A DNA stretch of 64,000 nt from Methanoregula sp. (GTDB taxonomy: Archaea > Halobacteriota > Methanomicrobia > Methanomicrobiales > Methanospirillaceae). Positions 31,124 through 58,462 of the stretch are shown here, piece after piece. Both the position numbers and the translations under genes were made by a program. Numbering within the stretch: the stretch's first letter is position 1; every line of letters begins with the position of its first letter. The notes under the pieces were generated by a model. The model had not been told where the DNA came from, did no database searches, and worked only from the letters and a program-made list of their open reading frames with translations. The stretch covers positions 1,065 through 65,064 of the forward strand of contig JALOBP010000003.1 in assembly GCA_023228295.1 (NCBI GenBank). Reading direction: 5' to 3'.

Positions 31124-31546
31124 TCAATCCTCAATCGAGATAGTTGTCAGTTTTACTGATTCGACACCCTTGTGGGCCATCAGTTTCTCAGCAAGTTCCT
31201 TCAGCTGCGAACCGTCCCCATGGACAAGGATTACCTCCAGGCACCGCTCGTGCGTGACATGGGAGTGGAGTGAGGCCTTGATGATGTCGTGGTAGTCGTG
31301 CTCGATCTCCGTGATGGCCGAGAGGAGGTTGCGCTGCTCGTGGTCGTACACCATCGTGATGACGCCCTCGCGTTCGCCCTTGACATCGGACATCCACTTG
31401 TAGTACGTGATGTACGTGCGGATCGCATCGCGGATACCTTCCGAGCGTGACGAATAGCCACGGTAATTAAGGATTTCATCAAAGCGGTCGAGCAGGTTCT
31501 TTGGGAGTGAGATCCCGATCCGGGAGAGGTCGTCTTCCATAGGCAT
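31124..31546 (-). CDS. nikR: Nickel-responsive ribbon-helix-helix regulator NikR
   Basis: RIGISLP..SRSEGIRDAIR RHH domain; Ni ligands YDH, HSH and RCLEV conserved. Confidence 0.93.
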   Translation of the reverse strand: MPMEDDLSRIGISLPKNLLDRFDEILNYRGYSSRSEGIRDAIRTYITYYKWMSDVKGEREGVITMVYDHEQRNLLSAITEIEHDYHDIIKASLHSHVTHERCLEVILVHGDGSQLKELAEKLMAHKGVESVKLTTISIED

Positions 31547-31642
31547 GATTCACCAGTGATGAGAATATCGTAGCTTGTAGGTGTTAAAGTTTTTGAAAAA
31601 CAGAGAGATTGGGTTGTACTTGGTATGAATTATCGTTGTGGA

Positions 31643-32755
31643 TTACGGCCAGATCAACCCGGTCTTGTTCGTCCCTGCAACATATCGCTCATCGTAGTCA
31701 GTGAGCATCTGTCGGGGATGCAGGTCCCGGAACTCTGAAGGGTGCAGGAGCTGGGCCGTGTATACAAGGCCGATGTACGCTCTGGGCCCGTACACGATCT
31801 CATTTTTCATTGCATGCACATGGTCGTTCTTTACAGCAGGGATCATCTCCCAGCCGGGCCGGGTTTTGAGCGAACCGACCATCTCTTCAAGACTGATTGT
31901 GTTGGTGCTGGAAACAACTTTCAGGATATACTCAGGCTGTCTTGCAACAACCCATTCCGGGCTCACCTTGACAGATGATGATGAGACATCATCCGCAATG
32001 TTCTTCCCGCCGGCACCGGTAACCAGTTCATGTGCACCGGAGCCCGCCGCTGCAACGGTATAGTCCGTGTACATCTCAAAATAGACTTCCGGGTACGTGC
32101 CTGACGGGATTTTCTTTAAACGTCCTGTCACATCACTAATAGTATCCTCGACAAGCCTTGCATAGACCTCAGCCTCGTTCATCTTCCCGGTGAGCCGGCC
32201 CAGGGCCCGGGCATCGGAGGAGAGCGTGGAGAGCTTGAAGCAGTCCAGCGAGATGATGGTGATGTTGGCTGCTGTGATCTGGTCGAAGTTTTTGGGTTTC
32301 GAGCTTGAGTATGCGATCACGATATCCGGATTCAGGGCGAGCATCCGCTCGATGTTCGGGTTCTGCCAGTCTCCGATACTCACCGCGTTCGGTATTTTGT
32401 CCATGACATATGGAACACTCTTCGTGGACTCCGTAACACCGACAATCCGGTCACCAGCCCCCATTGCGATCAGGAGCTCAGCGGCATTGGCATTTGCAGC
32501 AATAATACGCTGCGGTTCACAGGGCAGGGACACGGTCATCCCATCCGTCTGGGTGATGGTTAACGGCTGGCATGAACTCGTTGCCGGGGCCGGTGTACCG
32601 GACGGGGCTTGTGTCCCGACGGGTATGATGGTTGCGGAAGGTGCAATGGCTGAAGTGACCGGTTGTTCTGCAGGCTTTTCAAGGACCAGGGCTGCTCCAA
32701 CTGCGACAATACCGCAGATGAGGAGGGCGATAAGAATCGATGTTACTTTTTCCAT
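31643..32755 (-). CDS. Substrate-binding protein of a BtuF/FepB-type (corrinoid/heme/siderophore) ABC importer
   Basis: N-terminal membrane anchor, P/T/A linker, PQRII..AAELLIAMGAGDRIVGV, PNIERMLALNPD, IPAVKNDHVH. Confidence 0.88.
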   Translation of the reverse strand: MEKVTSILIALLICGIVAVGAALVLEKPAEQPVTSAIAPSATIIPVGTQAPSGTPAPATSSCQPLTITQTDGMTVSLPCEPQRIIAANANAAELLIAMGAGDRIVGVTESTKSVPYVMDKIPNAVSIGDWQNPNIERMLALNPDIVIAYSSSKPKNFDQITAANITIISLDCFKLSTLSSDARALGRLTGKMNEAEVYARLVEDTISDVTGRLKKIPSGTYPEVYFEMYTDYTVAAAGSGAHELVTGAGGKNIADDVSSSSVKVSPEWVVARQPEYILKVVSSTNTISLEEMVGSLKTRPGWEMIPAVKNDHVHAMKNEIVYGPRAYIGLVYTAQLLHPSEFRDLHPRQMLTDYDERYVAGTNKTGLIWP

Positions 32756-32816
32756 GGTAAATCTCCGGAATCTGAACAATGGCCGGCCGTGCAGAAAAAT
32801 GACCGGGACAAGACCA

Positions 32817-33542
32817 TCAGATCGTCACCCGCCGGAATACGGACATGCAGATCCCCAGGATGACTGCTGATATGGTAACGAGGAGGATGACGGACAGTGA
32901 AGGTATTATACCGGCTCCGATCTCCCGCACGGCATCGATGGCAAAACTGAGTGGGTTGAGCCGGGCAAGCGTTGCAAGCCACGCAGGCATTACATCGTAA
33001 GGCATCAGGGCGCTTGAGGTGAAGAAGAGCGGCATCGAGATCATGGTGCTGAAGGCCGAGTAGGAATCGTGGTCGTCAAGGTACAGCGCAATGGTCGTGG
33101 CAAAAGCCGAGATGAGTACCCCGAACAGGAAGAGAACGAAGTACGTCAGGAGATACTGGAGCGGGCTCATCAGCGTTGCGCCAATCATGAGAGCGATGAC
33201 GAGGATGATGGTAGTCTGGATCAGGCCCCGGCCGGTGATGAAGAGGATCTTCCCCACAAGAATGCTGCTCCGCGGCGTAGGCAGGGCAAGGAATTTGTTC
33301 AAAAACCCGAGGATCTTGTCAAACATCAGAAGCGCTCCCCCGGACAAACCGGCCGAGAGCATGGTCATGACAAGAATTCCGGGCGTAATGAAGTCCAGAT
33401 AATTGCCCGTGAATTTTACCGGCAGCGCGAGCCCGACAAAGATCAGCCATGCTGCCGGCATGACCAGAGCCGAGACCACGGCAACACGGCCACGGTACCA
33501 TTTCAGGAAGTCACGTTTCATGTACGTAAAAATACCCTTCAT
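32817..33542 (-). CDS. ABC-2 exporter permease
   Basis: YLDFITPGILVM, FFTSSALMP, LNPLSFAID; six TM helices. Confidence 0.85.
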   Translation of the reverse strand: MKGIFTYMKRDFLKWYRGRVAVVSALVMPAAWLIFVGLALPVKFTGNYLDFITPGILVMTMLSAGLSGGALLMFDKILGFLNKFLALPTPRSSILVGKILFITGRGLIQTTIILVIALMIGATLMSPLQYLLTYFVLFLFGVLISAFATTIALYLDDHDSYSAFSTMISMPLFFTSSALMPYDVMPAWLATLARLNPLSFAIDAVREIGAGIIPSLSVILLVTISAVILGICMSVFRRVTI

Positions 33543-34501
33543 TTCCGCCTCCGCAGCATTATCCGGAACTTCGCGTCTTCAAACCCGTGAGGCTCCTCCT
33601 GCTGGCCGACCGCTTGTAGGAAGACATCATCGAGGGTGGGCTCACGCAGGAACATCGCCCTGATGGCTGCACCAGACCGTGCAAGCGTATCGGCAAGCAC
33701 CGGGAGCGCCTCGCTCCCATTCTCGGCAGTAAATGAGACCTCATCGCCGGTCCTTCCCACAAAGATGACGCCCTCAATATGTGGTGGGGTGCATTCCCCT
33801 TCAATCCTGACCGTGATGACATCCTTCATCAGCCTTGCCTTGAGTTCTGAGGGAGAGCCCAGAGCAGCTATCCTGCCCTTGCTGATGATCCCGACCCGGT
33901 CGCAGAACTGGTCGGCCTCATCCATGTAATGGGTAGTGACAAAGATGGTCATGCCCTTCTTCCGGAGGTTCCTGATGTGCTCCCAGATCTTTTTCCTTGC
34001 AGCAACATCGAGACCGATCGTGGGCTCATCAAGAAAGAGCACTGAGGGTTCGTGGACGAGGGCCTGTGCCAGCTCGAGCCGCCGGCGCATCCCGCCCGAG
34101 TAAGTTTTGATGAGGTCGTCAGCCCGGTCCGTCAGCTCCATAACCGCGAGTACCTCATCCACGCGGTCTTTGGCATTTTCAACGCCATACAGGTCGGCAA
34201 AGAAGCGGACATTTTCCCGGCCGGTCAGTTTAATGTCTACGGCCATATCCTGCGGCACGTAACTGATACAGCTCCTGACTTCCTCCGCATTACGGAGAAT
34301 GTCATTGCCGCATACCGTGGCACTTCCTTTGGTCGGGTGGAGGAGGGTCGTGAGCATAAGAACCGTGGTCGTCTTGCCCGACCCGTTGGGGCCAAGCAGG
34401 GCGAAGATCTCGTTATTGATCGAGAGCGTGAGGTCATCCACGGCACAGAGCGCGTCATAGTATTTGGTCAGGTTGCTCGTCTCAATTGCATTCATTGTCA
34501 T
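33539..34501 (-). CDS. ABC-2 exporter ATP-binding subunit (DrrA-like)
   Basis: GPNGSGKTT, YSGGMRRRLELA, LFLDEPTIGLD, PTLDDVFL. Confidence 0.9.
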   Translation of the reverse strand: MTMNAIETSNLTKYYDALCAVDDLTLSINNEIFALLGPNGSGKTTTVLMLTTLLHPTKGSATVCGNDILRNAEEVRSCISYVPQDMAVDIKLTGRENVRFFADLYGVENAKDRVDEVLAVMELTDRADDLIKTYSGGMRRRLELAQALVHEPSVLFLDEPTIGLDVAARKKIWEHIRNLRKKGMTIFVTTHYMDEADQFCDRVGIISKGRIAALGSPSELKARLMKDVITVRIEGECTPPHIEGVIFVGRTGDEVSFTAENGSEALPVLADTLARSGAAIRAMFLREPTLDDVFLQAVGQQEEPHGFEDAKFRIMLRRRK

Positions 34502-34523
34502 TTCGCCATCCCATTCCCGTGCA

Positions 34524-37500
34524 TCAGTGCCGGTGTTTCGCATGCACCTTTGCCATGAGGTCCTTCATAGAATCGTTCCAGCCGGGGATATCCTGTACCG
34601 TGACCACGTCCACTTCCCCTCCCTGGTATTCCCCGCCACTGATCTGGTCTTCCATCCATGATTCGATCTCGAGGTAGTTCCTTTTAAGTTCATCGAGTAC
34701 TTCCACATCCGCGTGCCAGAGCCCGCGTTGCTCGGCTTCAAGAAGACGTCGCGAGATCTCCTCGAGGGCATGGGGGTTGTTCTCTTCAAAGAACTGGCGC
34801 ATCTCATCATTGTTCACAAAAGTCTCAGCAATATCATCGAAAATCCAGTCATCCACTTCCTGCGTGGATGCTTCCCAGCCATAGACCCGGGTCACCCGCT
34901 TCATGATATCGGAAGCCCCCTTGTACCCGTGTTTCTTCATCCCATCGATCCATTTCGGGTTGAGCAGTTTTGTCCGGACCACGCGCCGTATCTCATCGGA
35001 GAGATCCCTGACCTCGATATGTTCGGGCTCGCGGGTATCACCATAATAGGGTCTGACCTCGCCCCCGGAATAGTGCCGTGCTGCTGCAGTCATTCCCCCG
35101 TGGGCACCAAAGTAACAGCAGCAGCCAAGGAGATCGTACTCGTCGGACTGGACCTTGTTGAACGTGACAGAGACTGTCGAGAGGTTCACTGCGAGCTGCT
35201 CATGGGCACCCTTTCCGGTAATATCCTTGCCATAGGCATACCCGTTCACGGCAACAAAGATGTCGGCAAGGTCCTTTTCATCTTTCCATGCACTCGCAAG
35301 TACGGCAAGGTTCACACCGCTCGAGTACGTGCCGGGCTGGGATGAAAAAATCCGCAACGTGGCATCACGAAGGGACATGCCGTCCTGTTCGATCGCAGAC
35401 AGAGTATGCTTGCGGACATAGTTCTGATCAACCGGCTCGTCAAGGGTCGCGACTGCTGTCACGGCCTCATCGAGCAGTTCGTAACAATTGGCAAAGTTGT
35501 CCCGCAGAATGCCGGAAGTCCGGACCGTGATATCGATCCTTGGCCGGCCAAGTTTTTCGAGCGGGATGATGGAAAACGATTTTACCTGCCCGTTGGGGAG
35601 CCAGACCGGCTCGACCCCCAGCATGGCAAACATCTCGGCAAGCATCTCACCGTCCGATGACATGATGTCGCCTGCCATCCAGTAGAACGCAATATTCCCG
35701 GGAAGTTTTCCCTCCTCTTCATTATATTTGGCAACCAGTGACTCGGCAAGGCGCTGGCCCACCCGCCAGGCTGCCCGGGTGGGGACCTGGTAAGGGTCAA
35801 GCGAGAAGAAGTTACGGCCTGTGGGCAGTACATCCTCGTGACCGCGGGTGATGAGACCAGAGGGACCTGCCGGAATGTACCCGCCATCGAACCCGTTAAA
35901 GAGCGATTCCATCTCCTTTGAGTCTTCGATCCGCTGGTTGATACCGGCAACCCGTTCCCGGATCGTGTCCAGCTCACGGGCCATTTCCATGGATATCGCA
36001 TGGGTGAAAACAGTATCAAACGATTTGTTGGGATCCTGGAGAACCGACCGGACGAACAAACGAAGGTTCGCGTCAATCTGTTCAAGGAGTGCGCCATACG
36101 AGGCCTGGTGCTTTTCGGAATACTTCTGCTGGTTTTGGAGCAGGTCCACAAGGTCGAGTCCCATAACCTGCGCGATGATCCGCCGGGCTGATCGTTCACC
36201 GGCATCATAGCGGATAATGGAGCTGATGAAATCCACCCGTTTATCTCCATCAGGGAGTTCGCCAAAGATATGCATCCCGGCCTGGATCTGGGTGTTCCGG
36301 ATTTTCGAGAGGGCTTCGTGCGCTTTTCCCACAACTTCAGCCAGCGGCATATCATGGGTGAGACGAAGTTCTTTATCGAGATTATTTGCAGTAATCGCAT
36401 CGATGATAAGGTGCTGGAGGGCATGGGCCCGGGCCGGGTCGATCTTCGCAGTCTCGTACTGGGTGAGCAGGTTCTCCAGTTCCTCAAGACCGTCGTACAG
36501 TCCGCTGCCGGTCATTACAGTCTGCATGTGGTCGACGAGCGTTGCATAACTTCTCCGCTTCGCAAGCGTGCCCTCGGGGGGGTTGTCCGCATTGTAGATG
36601 TAGAGATAGGGGACGATCCCCGCTGCAACATCCGGGAAGCAGTCCTGAGATAGACCGAGGCCCTTGCCCGACAGGAACTCCAGGCTCCCGTGAGTTCCGA
36701 CATGGACAACAACATCGGCACCGAAAATTTTCTGGATGTACTGGTAGGTTGCAAGGTACTGGTGGGGGGGCGGGCAATCAGGATCGTGGAGGATCTTGCA
36801 GACGCTCCCGTCACAACGGGCACCGTAACACCCGCGCTTGGGCTGGACATGCACGGTGGCATTGCCGTACGAGAGTCCGGTTATCAGGATCCGGTTCTCA
36901 TGCACCATCCCCATGCCAGGAGGTTCGCCCCAGGTATCATTGACGCGTTGCTGCACGGCCGGGGTAAACGACTGGAAGTGCGGGAGGTAGGTTCCCAGGT
37001 CCATACTGTGGAGCGCACCTCCATTTACCACGATATCCTCAACGGTTGTCCAGCGGAACTCCGAGATCGCTTTCTTCCCCATGATAGACTCAATCAATTC
37101 CTTTCCATTGGCCGGGGGATTGACCGCGTACCCTGCCTCTTTCATCCGGTGAAGGATCCGCGCAACGCTCTCCATAGAATCAAGATGTGATGCCGATCCC
37201 ACGTTTGCCTCGGCATTTGCGCAGGGATTATTATTGAAGATGAACGAGACACGGCGCTCGTGAACTGGTTTTTTAGCAAGCATTACCCACGCTTTCACGC
37301 GGGCTGCAACCTTATCGCACCGGTCCGGCACCGGTTCGCGGGGCTTCTCCCCGTCCGGGCTGCTGCTGCTAGCACCGATGAAGACCGGCTCGATGGCTCC
37401 CTCGAACTCGGGCATGGCAACCGCCCAGCCGGTATCCAGCGTGAGCCCCGTTGATTCGCGCCACTGGTCAATGGACTTGTACATCGAGATGACCGGGTGG

Positions 37501-38339
37501 AAGACCGGGATATTCAGCCGGGTCAGGAGTTCGACACCGCTCTCTGCTGCGGTCTTTCCCCGGTAATCGTCCCCCCGCGAGGTGCCAAGCAGGAACGGCA
37601 CCAGTTTGATCATGGCATCGATCCGCGGTTTTCCGTTTCTGACAAAATACTGGTCGATGACGTACATCATCCCCTTCGCGCCCATGTTTTCATCACGGAT
37701 TGCATACGTAAACGCGGGGATGACCCCCAGACCCTGCACTTCAAGGCTCCGGATCAGCGTATCCTCGATTGCGGTATTCGATGAGGCCCATGTTACGCGG
37801 GAGAAGATCAACCCCACAAGCGGCGATCCCTCCGGCATATGCGGCCTGTACCATGCAAGGTACTCATCGATGTCAGTGAAAGCCTCCGGAGCATCAGGGT
37901 GATAGAGCCCCTCCCACGGGAGATCGAGCGGAGGGGGAACTTCCCCGGCGATCCCGCCAAGGATCTCTTTTTCTATGAACCGGAGGAGGTTTTGGTAGTT
38001 CTCGTCCCCGCTGTTAACGATATAGGTCTGGCAGGTTGTAACAATTCGGGGAGCAACAGAGGAATAAACAAAGAATGACGGGTCGTAACCCAGGGAGATG
38101 ACCGGAACAATCTTGCCGATCTCTTTGATCTCCTTGTCGATCCGCTCCCAGAACATGTCTGAAGTGTGGTAGAGAATGACGACATCGGCAGCCCGCATTG
38201 ATGCAAGCGCCTCGTCAACCTTCTCCGGGGACTCATCCAGAACGCGATTGGGATAGATCGTGAGTTCAACACCGGTCGCTTCTGCAGCGCGTTTCAGGAT
38301 CGGGGAGTACGAGCCCCACATGATTGCGGTCAGTTTCAT
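34524..38339 (-). CDS. cobN: Class I chelatase large subunit, CobN/ChlH family
   Basis: 1271 aa; AMPEFEG, HDPDCPPPHQYLA, HVGTHGSLEF, LPTGRNF, RPRIDITVRTSG, RTKLLNPKWIDGMKKHGYKGA. Confidence 0.93.
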   Translation of the reverse strand: MKLTAIMWGSYSPILKRAAEATGVELTIYPNRVLDESPEKVDEALASMRAADVVILYHTSDMFWERIDKEIKEIGKIVPVISLGYDPSFFVYSSVAPRIVTTCQTYIVNSGDENYQNLLRFIEKEILGGIAGEVPPPLDLPWEGLYHPDAPEAFTDIDEYLAWYRPHMPEGSPLVGLIFSRVTWASSNTAIEDTLIRSLEVQGLGVIPAFTYAIRDENMGAKGMMYVIDQYFVRNGKPRIDAMIKLVPFLLGTSRGDDYRGKTAAESGVELLTRLNIPVFHPVISMYKSIDQWRESTGLTLDTGWAVAMPEFEGAIEPVFIGASSSSPDGEKPREPVPDRCDKVAARVKAWVMLAKKPVHERRVSFIFNNNPCANAEANVGSASHLDSMESVARILHRMKEAGYAVNPPANGKELIESIMGKKAISEFRWTTVEDIVVNGGALHSMDLGTYLPHFQSFTPAVQQRVNDTWGEPPGMGMVHENRILITGLSYGNATVHVQPKRGCYGARCDGSVCKILHDPDCPPPHQYLATYQYIQKIFGADVVVHVGTHGSLEFLSGKGLGLSQDCFPDVAAGIVPYLYIYNADNPPEGTLAKRRSYATLVDHMQTVMTGSGLYDGLEELENLLTQYETAKIDPARAHALQHLIIDAITANNLDKELRLTHDMPLAEVVGKAHEALSKIRNTQIQAGMHIFGELPDGDKRVDFISSIIRYDAGERSARRIIAQVMGLDLVDLLQNQQKYSEKHQASYGALLEQIDANLRLFVRSVLQDPNKSFDTVFTHAISMEMARELDTIRERVAGINQRIEDSKEMESLFNGFDGGYIPAGPSGLITRGHEDVLPTGRNFFSLDPYQVPTRAAWRVGQRLAESLVAKYNEEEGKLPGNIAFYWMAGDIMSSDGEMLAEMFAMLGVEPVWLPNGQVKSFSIIPLEKLGRPRIDITVRTSGILRDNFANCYELLDEAVTAVATLDEPVDQNYVRKHTLSAIEQDGMSLRDATLRIFSSQPGTYSSGVNLAVLASAWKDEKDLADIFVAVNGYAYGKDITGKGAHEQLAVNLSTVSVTFNKVQSDEYDLLGCCCYFGAHGGMTAAARHYSGGEVRPYYGDTREPEHIEVRDLSDEIRRVVRTKLLNPKWIDGMKKHGYKGASDIMKRVTRVYGWEASTQEVDDWIFDDIAETFVNNDEMRQFFEENNPHALEEISRRLLEAEQRGLWHADVEVLDELKRNYLEIESWMEDQISGGEYQGGEVDVVTVQDIPGWNDSMKDLMAKVHAKHRH

Positions 38340-38469: not shown

Positions 38470-38497
38470 TTAATAAAACAGTTAGTTTTTGTATTAC
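38470..38497. promoter_or_regulatory. Putative NikR-type operator TTAATAA-N14-GTATTAC (extra GTATTAC at 38521-38527)
   Basis: In the divergent cobN / permease intergenic region. Confidence 0.5.
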
Positions 38498-38673
38498 TAA
38501 ATTTGTAAATTTTTTGAATCGTATTACAAAATATTCACATAGTTCTTATTTGCAATATTTGTTATCACATAAATTTTCAGATTGAATAATCATCGCAGGT
38601 GCCGGATCGTCCGGCCCTGTGAATTTCCCGAAAGGGACCGGACACACCCGAACATCACGACAGTACCCGAACC

Positions 38674-47385: not shown

Positions 47386-47413
47386 AAATGGGAAGCCCGC
47401 CGCCGAGTCCGCC
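47372..47413 (+). repeat. 42-bp exact direct repeat, copy 2
   Basis: Identical to 45807-45848. Confidence 0.95.
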
Positions 47414-48101: not shown

Positions 48102-48113
48102 TGGAGGGAAAAG

Positions 48114-49422: not shown

Positions 49423-51324
49423 TCACATCACGAACACAAACAGCCCCAGTGTGGCAATGAGCAGGACGATCGTATGTTTGAACCCGGCCAGGATGCTGTT
49501 GGAGCTGAACTGCCCGGCCATGATCCCGGAGAATGTGGCGAGGATGACGGCGATATTGAACATCTCCGAGAGGTTACCGGCAGTATCGATACTAAGATTC
49601 ATACCTTCGCCTTTGAATGCTTCGAGGAATGGGACATTAAGCTGGTAAGCGGTGTAGAGGAAAATACCGAATGAGAGGTAGATGATCATCACATAAATGA
49701 TGGTAGTGTTGGAGCGTTCGCGTTTGAGTTTGAGGTAGTATTCGAAATCAGTGATAGCGATGATGAAAATCTGTCGGAGGTTCGTGGTGATCTCGCTTGC
49801 CCGGACGAGCAGGGAGATCGCACGCTTCACGGAAACCAGCCCGATCCGTTCTTCCATTCGGACGAGTGCGGTATTGACATATGCCCCTGATTCGATGTCC
49901 CGCGAGGCAACCGATAGTTCGGAACTGAGCACCCCGAGTTTTGCACCGGCAATCCGGTGGATTGCCTCGTGCAGGGTGATCCCGATATCTTTCATGTCCG
50001 AGAGTTCCCGCAGGAAATCCGGAAGATGTGCCTCGATGTTCCGGACATACCATCTCCTCCCTTCATAAGCAAGCGCTACGGGGGCCATGAACCCGATGAT
50101 GATGATGCAGACGACTGACTGCATCTGGTCGTGCAGGAAGATCTCATCAAAGCCCCCGGTAAACCAGAACAAGGTAATACTGGCGGCAATGATCCCGCCA
50201 AGGATAATACCATAGTTATAGCTGGTGATGTACGTCCGGAGCGGGTGGCGGAGCCGGCTGAGGAGCAGTTCGCGTTTTTTGCTCTCTTCAATTCGCTTGT
50301 AAAAGTCCTTGTTCTCCGGATCCTGTTCAAACAGGTTCCGGGCATTCTGTTCGCTGGCCCCGTGACCGAACTCGTGTTCCACCACTTCCTTTCGGGAGAC
50401 CTCCAGATTCTCCGGGGGAATCATCATGGATAGGATCCAGATAAGGACGATAGCCCCGGCCGGGATACAGATGTACATCATTGGCAGGATCCATTCCATA
50501 CCGGAAGAATTGGTCATCCCCTGTGCCACGATCATGATGATGAGAGCGATTGGCCCGGCAACAAATGCTGTTACGTACACCTCGGCCATGATCTCGATGG
50601 TCTTCAACGTCAGTTCGAGTTCCTGTTTGGCCTGATCGCGGTAATACTCGGTCTTTGCGCCAAGGTAATTGGTAACATCGCCGCCACTGTCAAAGACGAT
50701 GCCGAGATCGTTGATGAAGTCCCGCAGGTTGGGCGATGGCGTGGTATGCTGCAGGTTCTTCATGGCCTTATCGAGATCGTCCCCGAAGAGTTCCACGTCT
50801 CGGACGATCATCCCGAACTCTTTTGAGATCTCGCCAAACATCTCCTGCTCCTCGTACACCTTGTGGATGATCTGGTACGGGGGCATGGTGGTGGAGAGAG
50901 CCTGCATGTAGGAGATCGCATACGGCATATCCAGTTCGATCCTGCTTTTCCGCCCGTGGGCAACCATCTCCGGGTAATAGATCTGCATCAGGTACTGACC
51001 GGGGACAAAGAGGACAAAGATGATGAGCCAGAGCACGGGATCGCTGGTCATGAAGCCGAATATCTCCAGCTCGAACCCGCTGAACTGCAATATCCCCCAG
51101 AGTGCCGCCAGCATGAGAGTTGTATAGATGAGGTTGAGCCGAGTTGTCCGCAGATATTCCTCAGCCGTTACCGGCATATGGGCTGAACGCAGGACTTTTC
51201 TTAAGTTATTGCCATGGATCGATAACTCGAAATCCGTGAGTTTCTTCTCTGCGTGCCGGATAAATGGGGGAGGGGTAATATTCACATCCACGTCATTCAC
51301 CCAGGTCGTGGATGGCGTTGGCAA
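49423..51324 (-). CDS. Type IV pilus platform protein with two fused TadC/FlaJ (T2SSF) domains
   Basis: IELDMPYAISYMQAL..FGEISKEF and second repeat IEAHLPDFLREL..LGVLSSEL. Confidence 0.88.
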   Translation of the reverse strand: MPTPSTTWVNDVDVNITPPPFIRHAEKKLTDFELSIHGNNLRKVLRSAHMPVTAEEYLRTTRLNLIYTTLMLAALWGILQFSGFELEIFGFMTSDPVLWLIIFVLFVPGQYLMQIYYPEMVAHGRKSRIELDMPYAISYMQALSTTMPPYQIIHKVYEEQEMFGEISKEFGMIVRDVELFGDDLDKAMKNLQHTTPSPNLRDFINDLGIVFDSGGDVTNYLGAKTEYYRDQAKQELELTLKTIEIMAEVYVTAFVAGPIALIIMIVAQGMTNSSGMEWILPMMYICIPAGAIVLIWILSMMIPPENLEVSRKEVVEHEFGHGASEQNARNLFEQDPENKDFYKRIEESKKRELLLSRLRHPLRTYITSYNYGIILGGIIAASITLFWFTGGFDEIFLHDQMQSVVCIIIIGFMAPVALAYEGRRWYVRNIEAHLPDFLRELSDMKDIGITLHEAIHRIAGAKLGVLSSELSVASRDIESGAYVNTALVRMEERIGLVSVKRAISLLVRASEITTNLRQIFIIAITDFEYYLKLKRERSNTTIIYVMIIYLSFGIFLYTAYQLNVPFLEAFKGEGMNLSIDTAGNLSEMFNIAVILATFSGIMAGQFSSNSILAGFKHTIVLLIATLGLFVFVM

Positions 51325-53260
51325 GATCGTGGATGGTGGGAGTCTCGACCTTCATGGCCCAGGTGAAGAACTCCTCGCGCATCTTTAGCTGGCGTGCAAG
51401 TTCATCTGCACCCCACCCGCAATGGAACGCGATCTCGTCAAGGACCCGGGACGTTTCAAATTTTTTCGTAAACGAGTCGCTGTGGATATCCCATTCAAAG
51501 AGCAGCCGTGGTACGATCTCACCGCTCTTTGTCACTTCGACCTCATGGATGGAGAGGTTCCGCCGGATCCGCCGCTTGCCGAGGGTGTAGATTGACTGAA
51601 CGACAACAAGGTCGAGCGCCTGGAACATGACCGACGGGACATTGATGGGATCGTGGGTCAGCCGGTTTATAGCTTCATACACGCTGCCGGCGTGGATGGT
51701 GGAAAGGGTGGCATGGCCGGAGTTCATGGCCTGGAAGAGGGTCTGGGCTTCGCGGCCACGGACCTCGCCGACAATGATGAACTCCGGGCGCTGCCGCATG
51801 CAGGCTTTGAGGAGCGAGAACATGTCGATATCGCCTTTCATACCTTCCGAGGTGAGTTCCCGTGTCTGGGTGGGGAGCCAGTTCTTGTGCGGGAGCTGGA
51901 TCTCGCGGGTGTCCTCTAAGGAAACGATCTTGGCATTCTGCGGGATGAAGAGCGAGACCGCGTTCATCATAGAAGTCTTGCCGCTCGCAGTACCGCCAAC
52001 AACCAGCAGGCTTTTGTGGTGCTCGATGGCAAGCCAGAGGTATGCAAGGGTCTCGGCACTGAATGTACCGAACCGGAGAAGGTCGATCGGGGTCATGGGT
52101 TCTGCCCGGAACTTCCGGATAGTGAATGAACTGCCCTTGGTAGAGACCACATCGCTGTAAGTAATCTGGACCCGCGCCCCGTCGGGCAGGGTGGCATCGG
52201 CAAGGGGGTTGGAGAGCGATATCTGCTTGTTGGCTTTCTGGGCAAGCTTGAGCACGAACTGGTTCAGCTCGCTTTCTGAAAAGACGATATTCGTAGGCAG
52301 GCTGCCGTAGGCACGGTGGAAGATAAACACCGGATGGCTGTGGCCATTGCAGCTGATGTCCTCAAGGGCCGGGTCCCGCATGAGGACTTCGAGAGGGCCG
52401 TAGCCGGAAAGGTCCCGTTTGATATAATAATTGAGGATACGGATCCGCTCTTCCGTGATGCCGGGGTCGAACTCACGGATGATCCTGTCGACAACCGCAG
52501 GTTCGATATGCGTTTCCCTTCCGTTTTCTGACTCGTCAAAGATGATGACGTCTCTCAGGCGGGCATGGGTCTCGAGCAGGATAACCTTCTCCTTCTGGCT
52601 GACCGCAGGTTCCGTGACAAAGTAGGTGAAGCCCACGGTTCCCATCCGTTGGATCTTGACATACGAGTACGGTTCTGCTACCCAGTACCATTCCAGTTCC
52701 GTAAGAGAGGGTTCGTCCAGCTCCGGACGGGGACGGTCCTGCGAAGATTCCGGCGGTTCGTCCGGCCCTGTTCCGGACACGACCGGAACCGGGGCGATTG
52801 GAGCTGCTTCGGCCGGAACTGGACTGGCAGGTTTCCCGAACGCAAACCATGACTTACGCTCGTACCGGGTCTTGAGAACAAGGCCGGAGGTGGCGAGTGT
52901 GAGGAGGGCTGCAAGGGAGACGGCTGCCATTAGGAGGAGATCGAGATCGACAAGGAGCGCTACATATGTGGTGGCAAGTGCGGCAAAGACGAGGATACCG
53001 GTCATGATAATCCCATCCTGCGTGGGAGCGCAGAAGTAGTCGAGGGCTTTTGAGTACCAGTAGTTCACCTGCGGGGGGAGGCCGGGCCGGGGCGGGAGTT
53101 CCACGGTAACTGTGACGGGAACCTGGGTCGGCTCGTGCCGTTCTTCCGCTTGCCCCAGGCCAGGGATCTGCTCTTTCAAATTGACAAGGGCTCCCAAGAC
53201 GCCGTTAAGGGAGATGATGGACATAACAGCTGAAAGAATGATCGGGATATTCGGGAGCAT
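51293..53260 (-). CDS. Type IV pilus assembly ATPase (VirB11/FlaI/CpaF family) with N-terminal TM extension
   Basis: LEDISCNG, FTIRKF, GGTASGKTS, SLEDTRE, RQRPEFIIVGEVRGREA, GHATLSTIHA. Confidence 0.93.
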   Translation of the reverse strand: MLPNIPIILSAVMSIISLNGVLGALVNLKEQIPGLGQAEERHEPTQVPVTVTVELPPRPGLPPQVNYWYSKALDYFCAPTQDGIIMTGILVFAALATTYVALLVDLDLLLMAAVSLAALLTLATSGLVLKTRYERKSWFAFGKPASPVPAEAAPIAPVPVVSGTGPDEPPESSQDRPRPELDEPSLTELEWYWVAEPYSYVKIQRMGTVGFTYFVTEPAVSQKEKVILLETHARLRDVIIFDESENGRETHIEPAVVDRIIREFDPGITEERIRILNYYIKRDLSGYGPLEVLMRDPALEDISCNGHSHPVFIFHRAYGSLPTNIVFSESELNQFVLKLAQKANKQISLSNPLADATLPDGARVQITYSDVVSTKGSSFTIRKFRAEPMTPIDLLRFGTFSAETLAYLWLAIEHHKSLLVVGGTASGKTSMMNAVSLFIPQNAKIVSLEDTREIQLPHKNWLPTQTRELTSEGMKGDIDMFSLLKACMRQRPEFIIVGEVRGREAQTLFQAMNSGHATLSTIHAGSVYEAINRLTHDPINVPSVMFQALDLVVVQSIYTLGKRRIRRNLSIHEVEVTKSGEIVPRLLFEWDIHSDSFTKKFETSRVLDEIAFHCGWGADELARQLKMREEFFTWAMKVETPTIHDLANAIHDLGE

Positions 53261-53364: not shown

Positions 53365-53515
53365 GTAATAAATTCTTACGTTTTTGTGTTACGACATCCG
53401 TATGAAGAGAGATCGGGCCAGAATACACCGAAATAGTATTAAAAATTTGTTTGAGAGTTATGAAAAGGCATATTTTTATAGCATTGAGTATTACGAAAAG
53501 TGATAGATTTATTAA
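53365..53515. promoter_or_regulatory. Divergent ATPase/pilin promoter with three putative operators (53365-53392, 53436-53463, 53488-53515)
   Basis: GTAATAA-N14-GTGTTAC, GTATTAA-N14-GTTATGA, GTATTAC-N14-TTATTAA. Confidence 0.55.
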
Positions 53516-53551
53516 CAATAAGTCTGCATTATCATATATGTAAGAGGAATT

Positions 53552-54259
53552 ATGATGAATTCAAACAGGAAAATGCGGGATGCAGGAGTTTCACCGGTCG
53601 TTGGTGTGATGCTGATGCTCGTTGTCACCATCATTATCGCAGCAGTGGTGAGCGCTTTTGCCGGTGGGATGGGCAAGACCACGGAGAAAGCGCCAACTGT
53701 TTCAATGGAGTGCCGTATCGCTAATGGCGGGACGTGGGGTTCCAGCGAGTTCGACTGCGCTGTACTCGGTACCAGTGATGCAATCCCGACTAAGGATCTG
53801 AAGATTATTACTTCATGGACTGCACGTGATGGCACCAAGGGTGGGGGCACGGTGGTTGGTCCGAACAGCACGTTCCCCAACACCAGAACACACAGCGGGG
53901 GTGGCACGCAATACAACTCACCACTGGGATTTGGGCCGGGAGTCGGGATTACTATGTCAACGGGATCGTATTATCCCGATCAATCATATGGTAACTATTC
54001 CCTTGTGGCGGGAACCCACATGCACAATGTGCCGTATGGATATCTGCCCTCATATGGTGGGTATGGCGTGAGTGTAGACAATCGATTTAATTACACATTT
54101 GGCACAGCATATCAGACCGATGATGTGGACGCATTACAGGCAATTCTTGGAGACAACTGGGAAACACTCCGGCAGGGCGATATAGTAGAACTGAGGATGT
54201 TCCACATTCCCAGCGGCAAGATCATCTATGAAAAAGATGTAACCGTAGGGGGACAGTGA
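53552..54259 (+). CDS. Archaeal type IV pilin, subtype A
   Basis: RDAG-VSPVVGVMLMLVVT; IPTKDLKIITSW; FHIPSGKIIYEKDV. Confidence 0.9.
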   Translation: MMNSNRKMRDAGVSPVVGVMLMLVVTIIIAAVVSAFAGGMGKTTEKAPTVSMECRIANGGTWGSSEFDCAVLGTSDAIPTKDLKIITSWTARDGTKGGGTVVGPNSTFPNTRTHSGGGTQYNSPLGFGPGVGITMSTGSYYPDQSYGNYSLVAGTHMHNVPYGYLPSYGGYGVSVDNRFNYTFGTAYQTDDVDALQAILGDNWETLRQGDIVELRMFHIPSGKIIYEKDVTVGGQ

Positions 54260-54831
54260 TGAAATCACGGTCAAATGGTGAGGCTGTGTCCCCGGTTGTC
54301 GGTGTGATGCTCATGCTTGTTGTCGTCATCATCATTGCCGCAGTTGTGAGCGCTTTTGCCGGAGGTTTGACAACGACCAAGGATAAAGCACCAACCACCC
54401 AGATTCGTGCCGATTACAGCGTGACCAATGGGATGAAGATCGAACATGTCGGGGGAGATACAATTCCCACCATGGGAACGACTGTTATGGTGCGCCCTTC
54501 AAAAACATGGGGGACTGCCGATCATATTACATCAATTGTAAACAAGTCTTCCATCACTAACGGCGGTAAGGATAATGGAGTGTATACCGGTACATCAAAT
54601 CCCTGCAAATTCTGGCTTAAACCAACGGGGTCTTCTGATATCAAATCTTTTGCAACTGGGGATGTTGCCTATATCAAGCCACCCTATAATGAAGGACCAT
54701 TCCTGAACACAGGAAGTAGTAAAACATACTGGTTCAATCGCACAGATGCCGTTGGGCGGACATTCTGGCTTGAACTTGCCGATGAGGGCGGACGGGTGTT
54801 TGCGAAAACTGAGGTAACCGTTGCACCTTAA
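54256..54831 (+). CDS. Archaeal type IV pilin, subtype B
   Basis: GEA-VSPVVGVMLML; EHVGGD. Confidence 0.9.
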   Translation: MMKSRSNGEAVSPVVGVMLMLVVVIIIAAVVSAFAGGLTTTKDKAPTTQIRADYSVTNGMKIEHVGGDTIPTMGTTVMVRPSKTWGTADHITSIVNKSSITNGGKDNGVYTGTSNPCKFWLKPTGSSDIKSFATGDVAYIKPPYNEGPFLNTGSSKTYWFNRTDAVGRTFWLELADEGGRVFAKTEVTVAP

Positions 54832-54835
54832 GGAG

Positions 54836-55555
54836 ATGATGATTGTGAAAAGAGAGAGTCCAACAACAGAAAACGCAGTTTCGCCGGTCATTGGGGTAAT
54901 GCTCATGCTGGTCGTTGTCATTATCATCGCTGCTGTGGTCAGCGGGTTTGCCGGTTCACTCGTGAGTGGTGAAAAGAAAGCTCCGCAGATGTCTGCTGAA
55001 ACCACAATCGCCAATACGGGATATTATTACGGGAGTTATTTCTCGATTGTCGTAACCGGTGTTAGCGAACCGATCCCCAGCAGGGATCTCAAACTTGTTA
55101 CTTCCTGGACGGCACGGGATGGCACAACAAACACAACATCGGTTCTTCCCCTGGTTGGTAATTACCAGTACGGGACTATGACGTCCAAGTCCATCGCTCC
55201 ATGGGGCAATGGTCCGGGCATTACCAGTTATGGTATGTTCGAAACAAAAACACCGGAACAGCTCTTCGGGAATTTCACGATAACTTCCGGGACCTCCATC
55301 CACGCATCCCCGATGGGACTCTGGGATCCGGCAGCAGTTGCTGCACATGGGGGATATGGACCCGATACACCGACCTATCAGTATGTCGATGGGACACAAT
55401 TCCTTCCATTAAGCGGGGAGACTGATGGAATGCAGGCAGTCCTGGGTATCGACTGGAATAAACTCCGGGAGGGGGATATCGTAAATGTTAAGTTGATCCA
55501 TGTCCCCTCCGGGAAAATCATATTAGACCAGAATGTGGCTGTGAGAGGTGGATGA
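54836..55555 (+). CDS. Archaeal type IV pilin, subtype A
   Basis: ENA-VSPVIGVMLML; IPSRDLKLVTSW; IHVPSGKIILDQNV. Confidence 0.9.
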   Translation: MMIVKRESPTTENAVSPVIGVMLMLVVVIIIAAVVSGFAGSLVSGEKKAPQMSAETTIANTGYYYGSYFSIVVTGVSEPIPSRDLKLVTSWTARDGTTNTTSVLPLVGNYQYGTMTSKSIAPWGNGPGITSYGMFETKTPEQLFGNFTITSGTSIHASPMGLWDPAAVAAHGGYGPDTPTYQYVDGTQFLPLSGETDGMQAVLGIDWNKLREGDIVNVKLIHVPSGKIILDQNVAVRGG

Positions 55556-56117
55556 AATGAGATGGAATAGGGAAAATGCAGTTTCACCGGTCGTTGGGGT
55601 GATGTTGATGCTAGTCGTCACAATCATCATCGCAGCCATTGTCAGCGCCTTTGCCGGAGGCATGGGAAGTTCACAGGAAAAAGTACCGCAAGTTACACTC
55701 AAAGCTGAATACAGCATATCCGATGGTATGAAGATCTATCATAACGGGGGGGATTCCCTGACCGTGGGTGATTTCAAAATCCTGCTCTCACCGTCTAATA
55801 ATTTTGATAACAGTGAATCAAGGACATACATTAATGAGATTGATCAGAGCATTATCCAGAACGGTCCAAATCCCTCATCAGCAAACTGGTTCCGGTCGAA
55901 TAATGGTGGAAGAGAAGTGTTTCGTTTCTCTCCAGGAGATATTGCGTACATCAATGCGACAAACAGTAATACAGAGACACTAACACCCAATATGATATAC
56001 AACGGTGCCAATTATGGTATCAATCAAACCAGCAAGGTTGGGGCAACATTTTTCCTTGATTTCGTCACTAAAGATGGCAAGAAGATCGCACGGATAGAAG
56101 TTCCCATCCAATCCTGA
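55548..56117 (+). CDS. Archaeal type IV pilin, subtype B
   Basis: RENA-VSPVVGVMLML; YHNGGD. Confidence 0.9.
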   Translation: MDEMRWNRENAVSPVVGVMLMLVVTIIIAAIVSAFAGGMGSSQEKVPQVTLKAEYSISDGMKIYHNGGDSLTVGDFKILLSPSNNFDNSESRTYINEIDQSIIQNGPNPSSANWFRSNNGGREVFRFSPGDIAYINATNSNTETLTPNMIYNGANYGINQTSKVGATFFLDFVTKDGKKIARIEVPIQS

Positions 56118-56348
56118 TTCTCTTTTTTTTTCACAGGTTCTGAAGATGTTAAGTCGTATACGAATATCATCGACGGCCATTCAGTATCCCGTACAGATTA
56201 CCTGTAATTCTCCTCTCCACCTCATCACATGTCGTATATGTCAGTGAGTTGTTCCAGTAATGATGAGGAATTTTGGTGGTTTCGTTCTTAATTTTCATAA
56301 AAAAATACACAATTTTTTCCATGCTATCTTTTACAATGATCTGATCTG

Positions 56349-56376
56349 TTACTACAAAAATAAAAATTAATAACAC
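56349..56376. promoter_or_regulatory. Putative operator TTACTAC-N14-ATAACAC just upstream of chlD
   Basis: Same spacing; spacer AAAAATAAAAA matches that of the 41849 site read on the reverse strand. Confidence 0.45.
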
Positions 56377-56399
56377 TTGAGATACCACTATCCTCTTAC

Positions 56400-57464
56400 A
56401 TGTCACACCACATCCGCCGGAATATCCTGCCGTTCACGGCCATCGTCGGCCAGGACCAGATGAAACAGGCACTCATCCTCAATGCCATCAACCAGCGCAT
56501 CGGAGGGGTCCTGATCCGGGGTGAGAAAGGTACCGCAAAATCAACGGCCGTACGGGCCCTTGCCGAGATCCTTCCCGTCATCGGGATCGTCCGGGGCTGC
56601 CCGTTCAACTGCAACCCGGCAAACGAACAGGAGCTCTGCGATATCTGCAATGAGAAGATCGAGAGTGGTGAGAAGATCGAGACGCTCAACAAAAAGGTGC
56701 AGGTGATCACCCTCCCGCTCGGATCAACCGAGGACCGGGTTATCGGCACCATCGACATCGAGCGGGCGATAAAAGAAGGTATCAAAGCGCTGGAGCCGGG
56801 GATTCTTGCGGCCGTGAACCGGGGCATCCTCTATATCGATGAGGTGAACCTGCTGGACGACCATGTGGTGGATGTGCTGCTGGACTCCGCGGCCATGGGC
56901 GTCAACGTTGTCGAGCGCGAAGGGATCTCCCTCTCCCACCCGGCAAAATTCATCCTGATCGGGACCATGAACCCAGAGGAAGGGGAACTTCGCCCCCAGA
57001 TGCTCGACCGCTTCGGCTTGCAGGTGACCGTTGAGGGCATTGCGGATGTGGATGACCGGGTCGCGATTGTGCAGGTTGCCGATGAATTCGAGACCGACCC
57101 GCAGGTTTTCATGCAGAAATACGAACCGGAGCAGAGGCGTTTGACCGAGAAAATTGTCACGGCCAAGAAGATCCTTTCGCAGGTAAAGATATCCGATGCC
57201 ATTGTCCGGAAGATTGCCGAGACATGCGTACAGATGGGAGTCATGACCCACCGGGCAGAGATAACTATCGTGCGGACTGCCAAGACCATCGCGGCATTCA
57301 ATGGCCGCGAGGAGGTCACAGTCGAGGATGTCCGCGAGGCAATGGCCCTTGCCCTGCCCCACCGGATGCGGAAGAAGCCGTTCGAGGACCCCCGCGTTGA
57401 CCAGCAGAAGATCAACGAGATGATGCAGGACGAGCAAAAAAAAACGACCGTGAGCCAGAGCTAG
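56400..57464 (+). CDS. chlI: Chelatase AAA+ subunit (ChlI-like; 0-frame product of a frameshifted chlD)
   Basis: [45 protein letters not shown]. Confidence 0.92.
57435..57446 (+). other. Putative -1 frameshift / slippage site (A9 run, 57436-57444)
   Basis: CAA AAA AAA ACG; 0-frame stop at 57462-57464; the -1 frame is open to 58462. Confidence 0.75.
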
Positions 57465-58462
57465 ACAATCCCCCCCCACCACATCAGCAGGAACAGCAGG
57501 CTCCTCCACCCCCGCCGCCTCCGGAGAGCGAAGACCCGCAGGATCCCGGGAACAATGGTGCACCGGCACCCCAACCCCCGCCGGAACTTGTTTTTGATAT
57601 CGGAAAACCCATCGAGACCTCGCAAATCCGGTACGATGACTGCAAAGACCGGATGAAGCGACTCTCTGTATCCGGCCGCCGGGTCGATACGATTTCAGCC
57701 GAGAACCGTGGCAGGTACGCGAAGGTCCGGATGCCGCACGATCTCACGGATATCGCATTTGATGCCACCCTGCGGGCCGCCGCTCCCCACCAGAAGGACC
57801 GGGCACAGGAAGGGATGAGTATCGTTATCCGGGATGCAGATATCCGGGAGAAGAGCCGTGTCGGCAAGGTCTCGGTCACCTGCGTCTTTGTTGTCGACAT
57901 CAGCGGATCCATGGGGGCAGAGAAGCGAATGGAGAGCGCGAAGGGTGCAGTCCTCTCCCTGCTTGAGGATGCCTACCGGAACCGGGACCGGGTCAGCCTT
58001 GTTGCATTCCGGGGCAACGATGCCGAGATCGTGATGCCCCTCTCAAGCAGTGTCGATCTGGCGTACAAGCAGCTCAAAGAGATGCCCACCGGGGGAAAGA
58101 CGCCGCTTGCCCGCGGGCTCATGAAAGGGTACGAGGTTCTCATGAACGAGAAGAAGAAGCGCAAGGAGATCATCCCGCTCCTCGTCCTCATCTCTGACGG
58201 CAGGGCCAACACCGGATATGGAAAAAATATCAAAGATGAGATCCTTTCAATCGCGGGCCAGCTCCGCGAAGAGCGAATTCATACGGTCATCATCGATACC
58301 GAATCGGTGAAGCGATCGTTTGTGAACTTCCAGCTGGGATACTGCAGGGATATTGCCGAAGCATCTGGCGGATCCTATTATCCGCTCAGCGAATTGACCG
58401 TGCAGGGTGTGACCGCGATCGCGCAGGGGGAGAAAGAGCATCTCCTCTCATCAATGCTGTGA
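57443..58462 (+). CDS. chlD: -1 frame continuation of chlD: Pro/acidic linker + vWA domain (full ChlD about 687 aa from 56400)
   Basis: [24 protein letters not shown] linker, [37 protein letters not shown]. Confidence 0.88.

Follow-up and report, generated by a model that had tools for sequence, protein, structure and literature searches.

Methanogens need nickel (for F430, hydrogenases and carbon monoxide dehydrogenase, CODH) and cobalt (for corrinoids), and methane production in peat, sediments and digesters is often held back by a shortage of one or the other. Positions 31124–58462 of the window, the 64,000-nucleotide stretch of Methanoregula sp. DNA analysed here, encode a CobN–ChlI/ChlD class I chelatase, a BtuCDF/Fec-type ATP-binding cassette (ABC) importer, an ABC-2 exporter, the regulator NikR and the parts of a type IV pilus. 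On the best reading of the evidence, this locus appears to represent a metal-starvation system that is conserved and co-regulated in the Methanomicrobiales. Its parts are of known kinds, and both the frameshifted chlD and the NikR-controlled Fec-type importer have precedents; NiuBDE of Helicobacter is a NikR-controlled nickel importer of the Fec/Ceu type.

Frameshifting in chlD is already known, the genes concerned having been attributed to cobalt chelatases (PMC9227772). Those class I chelatases share with the present one a CobN/ChlH large subunit, a ChlI AAA+ ATPase, a Pro/acidic linker, a VWA domain with a DxSxS motif, and a –1 shift at an A-rich run with the zero-frame stop 18 nt later. 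Unlike them, the chelatase described here is neither embedded in nor co-distributed with a cobalamin or chlorophyll pathway but is accessory, is encoded together with importer, exporter, NikR and pilus genes, and shows no stimulatory RNA structure past the slippery site. The hmu operon of Bacteroidota (PMC12583661) likewise encodes a CobN-family protein with a metal-tetrapyrrole uptake system serving metal acquisition and not the making of cofactors, the corresponding substrate being only presumed here. Uptake through hmu is TonB-dependent, takes place in a diderm and involves no pilus, whereas the archaeal locus combines a BtuCDF-type ABC importer with pilus genes; moreover, HmuS is membrane-anchored and ATP-independent, whereas here the ChlID motor is conserved and the large subunit is closer in sequence to CobN/ChlH.

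The bindosome of Sulfolobales (BasEF and BasABC; PMC13705601) resembles the locus in having its filament base machine in one place, proteins with class III signals within ABC importer loci, and a presumed role in capture, and a wider class of type IV filaments carrying substrate-binding proteins has recently been proposed in the same work. In the bindosome the binding proteins themselves bear class III signals and belong to sugar importers, whereas here a binding protein with a plain anchor accompanies separate A/B pilin pairs and the importers are of type II (BtuCD-like), for metal complexes. PilB and TadC also score far below the Bas cut-offs (NF053672, 195 bits against 1000; NF053673, 35 against 1300). 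The bindosome-like arrangement suggested in a preliminary description of this DNA thus survives as pilin pairs inside BtuCDF-type importer operons and is lost at the binding protein, whose membrane anchor is plain.

Described NikR regulons also place a NikR with intact ligands next to a FecCD-type importer and use 7-N14-7 elements with a GTRTTAC-type half-site (PMC545781). Their operator is a true inverted repeat, whereas here the second half-site is TATA-like and NikR binding is putative; membership of a chelatase and a pilus in such a regulon, not described so far, is proposed here. Among the few proteins that Methanothermobacter marburgensis makes exclusively when nickel is limiting are CobN1, NikR1 and two transporters (PMC12350162); to judge by locus tag, the gene for one of these transporters is two genes away from a putative chelatase cluster tabulated in PMC3087415. 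Archaeal CobN homologues are numerous and are called unexplained both in the HmuS paper (PMC12583661) and in PMC9227772. The archaeal type IV filament censuses PMC4858521 and PMC13705601 make no mention of the conserved union of a type IV pilus, importer-operon pilin pairs, a class I chelatase and an ABC-2 exporter, and no description of a pilus–chelatase cluster was found in the literature searched on archaeal pilins with chelatase, corrinoid or CobN.

The source genome is a 3.1-Mb bin, 92% complete with 4.9% contamination, whose gene calls were classed by Pfam and NCBIfam profile searches; family comparisons cover 41 Methanoregulaceae genomes, with contigs and relatives' loci labelled G, L or C. 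All closest public loci come from Methanoregula metagenome bins. The locus is real: its gene order recurs in L002 and L029, two relatives that were assembled independently, and an assembly chimera or artefact is therefore rejected. Domain searches recover the NikR, importer, ABC-2 exporter, CobN, ChlI/ChlD, PilB and eight pilin-like genes listed in the preliminary description, with three corrections: its "double TadC" is a single tadC gene carrying two T2SSF domains, the 43.5–49.4-kb stretch inside the locus that it delimited is an unrelated insertion, and the locus is a hybrid of two paralogous modules. On the minus strand, cobN is followed by the genes for the DrrA-like ATPase, the ABC-2 permease, the Peripla_BP_2 binding protein and NikR, while fecCD and the importer ATPase gene diverge from cobN. 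The chelatase, transport and regulatory genes are as follows:

31124–31546, minus strand: nikR, with ribbon-helix-helix (RHH) and NikR_C domains; NCBIfam nickel-responsive regulator models above cut-off
31643–32779, minus strand: substrate-binding protein (SBP) of cluster A, BtuF/HmuT/FhuD-like (Peripla_BP_2, E = 2e-29)
32817–33542, minus strand: ABC-2 (DrrB-like) exporter permease (PF01061, TIGR01247), overlapping the ATPase gene by 4 nt
33539–34543, minus strand: DrrA-like exporter ATPase with ABC_tran and DrrA1-3_C domains; TIGR01188 above cut-off
34524–38339, minus strand: cobN, class I chelatase large subunit, "type-1" (PF02514, 1259 bits)
38674–39810, plus strand: FecCD/BtuC-type importer permease (PF01032, E = 7e-90)
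39822–40598, plus strand: importer ATPase, FecE/BtuD-like (ABC_tran domain)
56400–58462, plus strand: chlI/chlD gene, "type-2" (AAA_5, Mg_chelatase, AAA_lid_2; VWA in the –1 frame)

CobN is full length, with PF02514 covering residues 105–1213 (model positions 2–1088 of 1090), and it passes the NF004646 "cobaltochelatase subunit CobN" equivalog at 1856 bits against a cut-off of 1468. Its closest PDB entries are CobN 7c6o and ChlH 4zhj (E = 1e-162), with HmuS 9d26 the weakest full-length relative (E = 1e-109), and its partners in the locus are of the ChlI/ChlD type rather than CobS/CobT. A single cobN copy is present in the genome assembly. Across the family the protein is accessory: CobN occurs in 19 of the 41 genomes and is absent from 22, two near-complete same-genus genomes among them, while small CbiX/CfbA is single-copy in 39 of 41. 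Because CobN is accessory and small CbiX/CfbA near-universal, the system is not the pathway by which F430 or cobamides are routinely made, in agreement with the earlier judgement that this does not look like a B12 synthesis operon.

The type II ABC importer (BtuCDF/FecBCDE/HmuTUV class) is complete, comprising a FecCD-family permease, an ABC ATPase and a Peripla_BP_2 protein. BtuC is the best NCBIfam match of the permease, below cut-off. The importer ATPase most likely starts at 39822 rather than 39606, as a GGAGG motif precedes the former and relatives align over ~258 residues. The binding protein probably starts at the Met codon at 32755 and is membrane-anchored through an N-terminal transmembrane helix followed by a Thr/Pro/Ala linker; its PDB relatives for heme, B12, siderophores and Ni-His are about equally distant. 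The exporter ATPase gene overlaps the 3′ end of cobN and directly follows cobN in nearly all relatives.

Archaeal type IV pilus parts are likewise present, namely the assembly ATPase (PilB/T2SSE), the platform protein (TadC/T2SSF) and pilins that carry a class III signal and are pilin-like in fold, organised as separate transcription units from cobN in the window:

40643–41146, minus strand: B-type pilin (Pilin_N, class III-type N-terminus)
41143–41805, minus strand: A-type pilin (Pilin_N, class III-type N-terminus), preceding the B-type gene
42128–42550, plus strand: small pilin pil3 (Pilin_N)
42547–43509, plus strand: 320-residue pilin-like protein u320, class III-type N-terminus by sequence, with no Pfam match
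49423–51324, minus strand: tadC-like platform protein, with PF00482 in two stretches (two T2SSF domains)
51293–53260, minus strand: pilB-like assembly ATPase (PF00437)
53552–54259, plus strand: pil4, pilin pair 1 (Pilin_N)
54256–54831, plus strand: pil5, pilin pair 1 (Pilin_N)
54821–55555, plus strand: pil6, pilin pair 2 (Pilin_N)
55548–56117, plus strand: pil7, pilin pair 2 (Pilin_N)

The genes pil4/pil5 and pil6/pil7 form two further A/B pilin pairs. The predicted A-type pilin (predicted local distance difference test, pLDDT, 88.6) resembles archaeal filament subunits and the predicted B-type pilin (pLDDT 78) a Haloferax type IV pilin, so that by the fold of these models the pilins are genuine filament subunits. 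A ligand-binding fold is rejected, Foldseek having returned archaeal filament subunits and generic Ig-like folds only; the pilins had been put forward earlier as binders of tetrapyrroles, a proposal that both fold models, which are ordinary archaeal type IV pilins with few His or Cys residues, do not support. No prepilin peptidase was noted among the annotated genes of the locus, the rest of the genome not having been searched for one.

Pilus and chelatase/importer blocks are linked not only in many Methanoregulaceae but also in Methanoculleus, Methanomicrobium and Methanocalculus, one of the points on which the preliminary description, whose interpretation is partly supported, had staked its proposal in advance. 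The family counts draw on a listing of at least ~150 Pilin_N genes, among which 40 of the 41 genomes have 1–18 each. Pilins lie within 15 kb of cobN in at least 8 of the 19 CobN-bearing genomes (at most 2.0 expected; p ~3e-4), and the PilB orthogroup (at least 51% identity) is distributed with CobN as 13 genomes with both, 5 with PilB only, 6 with CobN only and 17 with neither (Fisher p = 0.004), p-values that are optimistic in that these statistics ignore shared ancestry. Additionally, among 102 pilin genes listed for 14 genomes, 33 have a FecCD gene within 8 kb, against 2.5 expected. Arrangements vary between genomes, and both CobN paralogues are involved. Chance adjacency is rejected by these counts and by the loci found in other families.

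The order PilB-TadC-pil3-u320 is kept in G013, G030, G039, L015, L066, L072 and L073, forming a constant base machine, and the A/B pairs are the dispersed, variable part. Homologues of the pilin pair at 40643–41805 adjoin importers in relatives, and pilin pairs adjoin FecCD genes in G005 (which lacks CobN), G022, G024 and G036. In the source genome itself, an operon on contig C83 runs from a NikR_C-only 94-residue protein through pilin A, pilin B, FecCD, a 426-residue ATPase and a substrate-binding protein to CbiZ, and the same segment (C83:3835–15266) continues with a second unit of substrate-binding protein, FecCD, ATPase and a His-rich FmdE-domain protein. Units of a small NikR-like gene, a pilin pair and an importer also occur in G013, L004, L013, L002 and G038.

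Loci outside the family give the stronger evidence. Seven A-type pilin homologues on long contigs were surveyed there, all seven of which adjoin a metal-type ABC importer, and the linkage occurs in at least three other Methanomicrobiales families. Five of the seven stand beside an SBP-FecCD-ATPase-CobN cluster with ChlD: those of Methanoculleus sp. 7T, Methanomicrobium antiquum, Methanocalculus sp. MC3 (two contigs) and the metagenome contig L072. The A/B pair diverges from an operon of small surface protein, SBP, FecCD, ATPase and CobN in four of these five CobN loci and converges on it in L072; an ABC-2 pump and pilB are present in all five except that of M. antiquum, and in L066 and L072 pilB comes with tadC, pil3 and a u320-like gene. 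The CobN proteins of Methanoculleus, Methanomicrobium and Methanocalculus are type-1 orthologues, 47–50% identical to that of the window. L073 has a type-1 layout with ChlD-FecCD-FecE and NikR, and its cobN would lie beyond the stretch examined. In L074 (2868–14649), a pilB-tadC-pilin cluster with A/B pairs is followed by co-directional genes for FmdE and a ZnuABC-type (ABC-3/ZnuA) importer, with no CobN, so that the pilus association may extend to other metal importers. The small surface protein that heads the SBP-FecCD-ATPase-CobN operon in Methanoculleus, Methanomicrobium and Methanocalculus (147–181 residues, with a signal peptide and a PGF-CTERM-like tail; L066:9097–9579, L068:9182–9727, L070:9212–9676, L072:20086–20529) is a candidate receptor for the imported compound and has no counterpart in the window module.

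Beyond the Methanomicrobiales, no pilin genes are found near CobN homologues (L014–L022, L030–L043). In Methanocella, Ca. Argoarchaeum, Methanothrix and Nitrospirota, CobN and ChlD stand with a Fec-type importer, and often also with ABC-2 and NikR, as a core that lacks pilins. On the best reading, the core (chelatase, importer, exporter and, in Methanoregulaceae, NikR), which other anaerobic archaea and bacteria have in pilus-free form, received the dedicated type IV pilus as a Methanomicrobiales-specific addition.

A promoter element joins the two blocks. NikR of the window keeps the nickel ligands H76, H87, H89 and C95 in alignment with the Escherichia coli and Pyrococcus proteins and is the sole full-length nikR of the genome; the genome holds two NikR_C genes, both at pilin-plus-importer loci, the second heading the C83 operon. 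The elements lie at the following positions:

38470–38527: divergent cobN/fecCD promoter, with one 28-bp element (TTAATAA-N14-GTATTAC) and an extra GTATTAC at 38521
41849–41994: divergent pil2/pil3 promoter, with two 28-bp elements (41849–41876 and 41967–41994)
53365–53515: divergent pilB/pil4 promoter, with two 28-bp elements (53365–53392, one mismatch, and 53488–53515)
56346–56373, plus strand: weaker element CTGTTAC-N14-TTAATAA, directly upstream of chlI, with one mismatch, as read from the sequence

The consensus is KTAWTAM-N14-KTAWTAM, reading gene-ward as GTAWTAC, an A-rich spacer and TTATTAM, with the second half-site at the TATA-box position, ~25 nt before a short leader. The half-site matches that of the published NikR box, GTGTTAC-N13/14-GTAACAC (PMC545781). 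Exact matches number four in the window against none expected, a statistic inflated by the pattern having been defined after the sites were viewed; the whole 3.1-Mb genome contains seven, four of them at the cobN and pilus promoters of the locus, and 864 kb of relatives' loci contain eight, all in cobN or pilus promoters. The pil2/pil3 elements recur in L002, L029 and G038, the site equivalent to pilB/pil4 in L015, and the 56346–56373 element falls in sequence homologous to that upstream of chlI2 in G009, G030 and G038. GTAWTAC pairs at 30-bp spacing recur in relatives' cobN promoters, GTAWTAC precedes both C83 importer operons, and in Methanoculleus and Methanocalculus both pilB and pilA have GTAACAC-N14-TATA-like sites upstream. 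A GTAATAC-cag-GTATTAC palindrome lies ~140 nt upstream of the C83 pilin pair. Downstream of nikR, between convergent genes, window positions 30880–30940 resemble a segment of the cobN/fecCD promoter (TTTTTGTAGCAATTAATATGTAAATTTTTTTGAAATGTAATATT) and could be what is left of a promoter or mark where an unannotated transcript begins. No Rfam match was found anywhere in the window, cobalamin riboswitch included, and riboswitch control is rejected.

Comparison with relatives resolves the locus into two modules. The type-1 module of most Methanoregula relatives is arranged as fecE<fecCD<chlD <> cobN>ABC-2 ATPase>ABC-2 permease>SBP>(nikR), with chlD an uninterrupted open reading frame (ORF) of 655–668 residues. 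The type-2 module (G009, G038, G030) comprises four pilins, a divergent gene resembling S-adenosylmethionine (SAM) methyltransferases, cobN2, a small secreted protein, a substrate-binding protein, fecCD, fecE, an ABC-2 pair and a frameshifted chlI/chlD; pilB-tadC lies alongside, and tadC is adjoined by nikR in G009 and by a NikR_C-like gene in G038. The cobN2 product is ~32% identical to the window CobN. The window ChlI and ChlD are 88–92% and 72–76% identical to the type-2 proteins, compared with ~54% and 45% to the type-1 proteins, and DNA comparison places window positions 56111–56351 where the type-2 module has 10.6 kb, running from cobN2 through the ABC-2 permease between pil7 and chlI. 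By sequence, the locus is thus a hybrid of type-1 CobN, importer, exporter and NikR without their own chlD, and a type-2 pilin block and chlI/chlD without cobN2; the type-2 ChlI/ChlD motor presumably serves the type-1 CobN.

The gene divergent from cobN2 encodes a protein of 243–249 residues with a SAM-methyltransferase motif (DYGCGSG; G030:C26, L059/L060; G009:C31, L048/L049) and, beside cobN2, recalls the ChlH–ChlM pairing of chlorophyll synthesis; because of the 10.6-kb gap it is not in the window. A second departure from the relatives is the insertion between u320 and tadC:

43510–49422: insertion of low G+C (44–46%)

The insertion contains a doubtful ORF (43791–44564), a 349-residue P-loop protein and, in tandem, two units that each pair a secreted Asn/Ser-rich protein with a DUF4013 membrane protein, the two secreted proteins being paralogous. 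The nearest relative, L029, lacks it, with only 1.1 kb between TadC and the u320 homologue, and the stretch therefore lies outside the system. Its cassette genes (P-loop protein and DUF4013 pairs) are rejected as system members, being missing in L029 and located elsewhere in G039, where homologues of the P-loop gene and of the first secreted protein are found.

The chlI/chlD gene begins with a ChlI-like zero-frame ORF (56400–57464, plus strand) encoding a 354-residue ATPase, while the –1 frame is open from 57401 to 58462 and its translation gives the Pro/acidic linker and a VWA domain with the DISGS motif. A slippery A9 run at 57436–57444 (of the form A_AAA_AAA) precedes the zero-frame stop by 18 nt, and a –1 shift there is predicted to yield a ChlD of ~687 residues; the two halves jointly match the single-protein model TIGR02442 "putative cobaltochelatase" end to end. 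The same site and –1 relation recur in G009, in G030 and in the second copy of the source genome on contig C169, with A9 in all. No stimulatory RNA hairpin was found after the A9 run, the stretch folding worse than shuffled sequence, and no conserved dnaX-like slippery site occurs in the single-ORF type-1 chlD genes. At the G038 junction (contig C9, L054) the run is A8 and the downstream frame is +1, not –1; both the A9 and A8 versions would be in frame given an A10 messenger. The pattern hints at transcriptional slippage to A10 as another fit, or the A8 run may instead be a sequencing or mutational change.

The C169 copy (14261–16825) comprises the 3′ end of pil7, the intergenic region, chlI and chlD, is 82% DNA-identical to window positions 55896–58407 with A9 kept, and belongs to a contig that ends within a pilin gene; it could be a true paralogue or derive from a co-binned strain. 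A CbiM/CbiQ/CbiO Ni/Co transporter lies ~4 kb from it. Convergent to chlD, a secreted or lipoprotein-like protein of 281–294 residues without family match is encoded both in the window (58518–59363) and on C169 (12615–13499), with homologues near pilus/chelatase loci of G013, G009 and G039.

Gene order and motifs together suggest a nickel-starvation regulon that couples an importer of bulky metal complexes, an ATP-driven chelatase metallating the cell's own ring, an exporter of the spent ligand and a pilus aiding capture or passage, a reading given a probability of about 0.5. In this regulon, nickel-bound NikR would sit on GTAWTAC-N14-TTATTAM, whose second half would also serve as the TATA box in front of cobN, the pilin genes, pilB and chlI, and all element-bearing promoters would fire when nickel is scarce. 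Filaments or short pseudopili of A/B pilins would help a bulky metal complex to reach the envelope binding protein, the complex being perhaps a nickel or cobalt chelate or a metallated tetrapyrrole or corrinoid. The BtuCDF/Fec-type importer would take the complex in; CobN-ChlID would then spend ATP to insert the scarce metal into the cell's own tetrapyrrole, as a high-affinity back-up for the housekeeping CfbA/CbiX, and the ABC-2 pump would expel the spent ligand.

Several observations weigh against this proposal, all functional statements of which are drawn from gene order, from motifs and from a single proteome study of a distantly related methanogen. CbiZ on C83 and CbiK in M. antiquum are neighbours that point to cobalt and corrinoids over nickel. 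The pilins have no metal- or ligand-binding features and are poor in His and Cys, and the N-terminus of the binding protein, MEKVTSILIALLICGIVAVGAALV, contains no K/R-G/A cleavage motif of a class III signal. Many pilins lie far from importers, and 45 of 61 FecCD genes have no pilin nearby; type-2 pilins and cobN2 are not one operon, because an opposite-strand gene separates them. For the element, the genome-wide and cross-genome counts are the fairer measure, and the operator was not found before the cbiMQO Ni/Co transporter on C169. NikR control, as the preliminary description had it, gains an operator-like element common to pilus and chelatase/importer promoters, but in three other families the 10 kb around the cluster contain no NikR gene.

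The neighbourhood might instead be co-regulated without forming one machine, the pilus serving adhesion or biofilm formation (attachment to particles or partner cells) under the same metal-starvation signal, with no role in uptake. The ordinary pilin folds would suit such a pilus, as would the separate transcription units of pilus and cobN in the window, the pilus-free cores of Methanocella, Ca. Argoarchaeum, Methanothrix and Nitrospirota, and the PilB orthologues of the five genomes without CobN. This is nevertheless judged unlikely: in several genomes pilin pairs immediately precede importer genes and point in the same direction, the linkage outlasts rearrangement across four families, and there is no obvious reason for an adhesion pilus to disperse its major pilin genes among importer operons. 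A system for cobalt and corrinoids appears somewhat more doubtful still. CobN-ChlID would here be the ATP-driven cobaltochelatase for cobamides that current annotation makes it, the importer would perform BtuFCD-type corrinoid or cobalt salvage, and NikR-family regulators would sense cobalt; the NCBIfam CobN score, the TIGR02442 match of the ChlD halves, the CbiZ gene in the sister C83 pilin-importer operon, CbiK and CbiZ beside the cluster in Methanomicrobium antiquum, and the published assignment of frameshifted chlD genes to cobalt chelatases (PMC9227772) all fit. Against it, CobN is absent in 22 of the 41 family genomes although all methanogens need corrinoids, and small CbiX is near-universal. 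A late-insertion pathway of the CobG/CobZ type is not expected in strict anaerobes, which further counts against cobalt. Moreover, the nickel ligands of NikR are intact, nickel limitation induces a CobN paralogue in another methanogen (PMC12350162), and the window lacks a cobalamin riboswitch by Rfam.

Ranked with the cobalt system, and thus equally doubtful, is the harvest scheme of the preliminary description, in which pilins capture metallated tetrapyrroles (F430, corrinoids, heme), the importer takes them up, CobN runs in reverse as a dechelatase like HmuS of Bacteroides, and ABC-2 exports the empty ring. HmuS, a CobN homologue from a heme-uptake operon, is a proven dechelatase (PMC12583661; PDB 9d26), whose authors state that the role of the archaeal homologues is unknown; the order importer ATPase, cobN, exporter, with overlapping ends in several families, also fits import, processing and export. 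However, the window CobN matches CobN/ChlH (E = 1e-162) far better than HmuS (E = 1e-109), the pilins give no evidence of tetrapyrrole binding, and HmuS depends on NADH without a need for ATP (PMC12583661), whereas in the archaeal loci an AAA+/VWA motor is kept without exception alongside CobN. A bolder form of the uptake idea, in which type IV filaments are needed for the uptake of bulky metal cofactors or their wrecks (F430, corrinoids, Ni/Co macrocycles) set free in methanogenic habitats, pilins pass the cargo to the importer, CobN-ChlID strips or transfers the metal and ABC-2 discards the ring, is improbable to about the same degree as the adhesion pilus; if true, it would be a new class of metal acquisition and give a large orphan group of archaeal CobN proteins its first assigned function.

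There is a real chance that the conserved union of pilus, importer-operon pilin pairs, chelatase and exporter is a new kind of metal-acquisition machine. The conserved cluster offers a testable function, probably in nickel starvation, for the unexplained archaeal CobN proteins, and a pilus acting in uptake would extend the nutrient-uptake role of type IV filaments, represented by the bindosome, to metal cofactors and to the Euryarchaeota.

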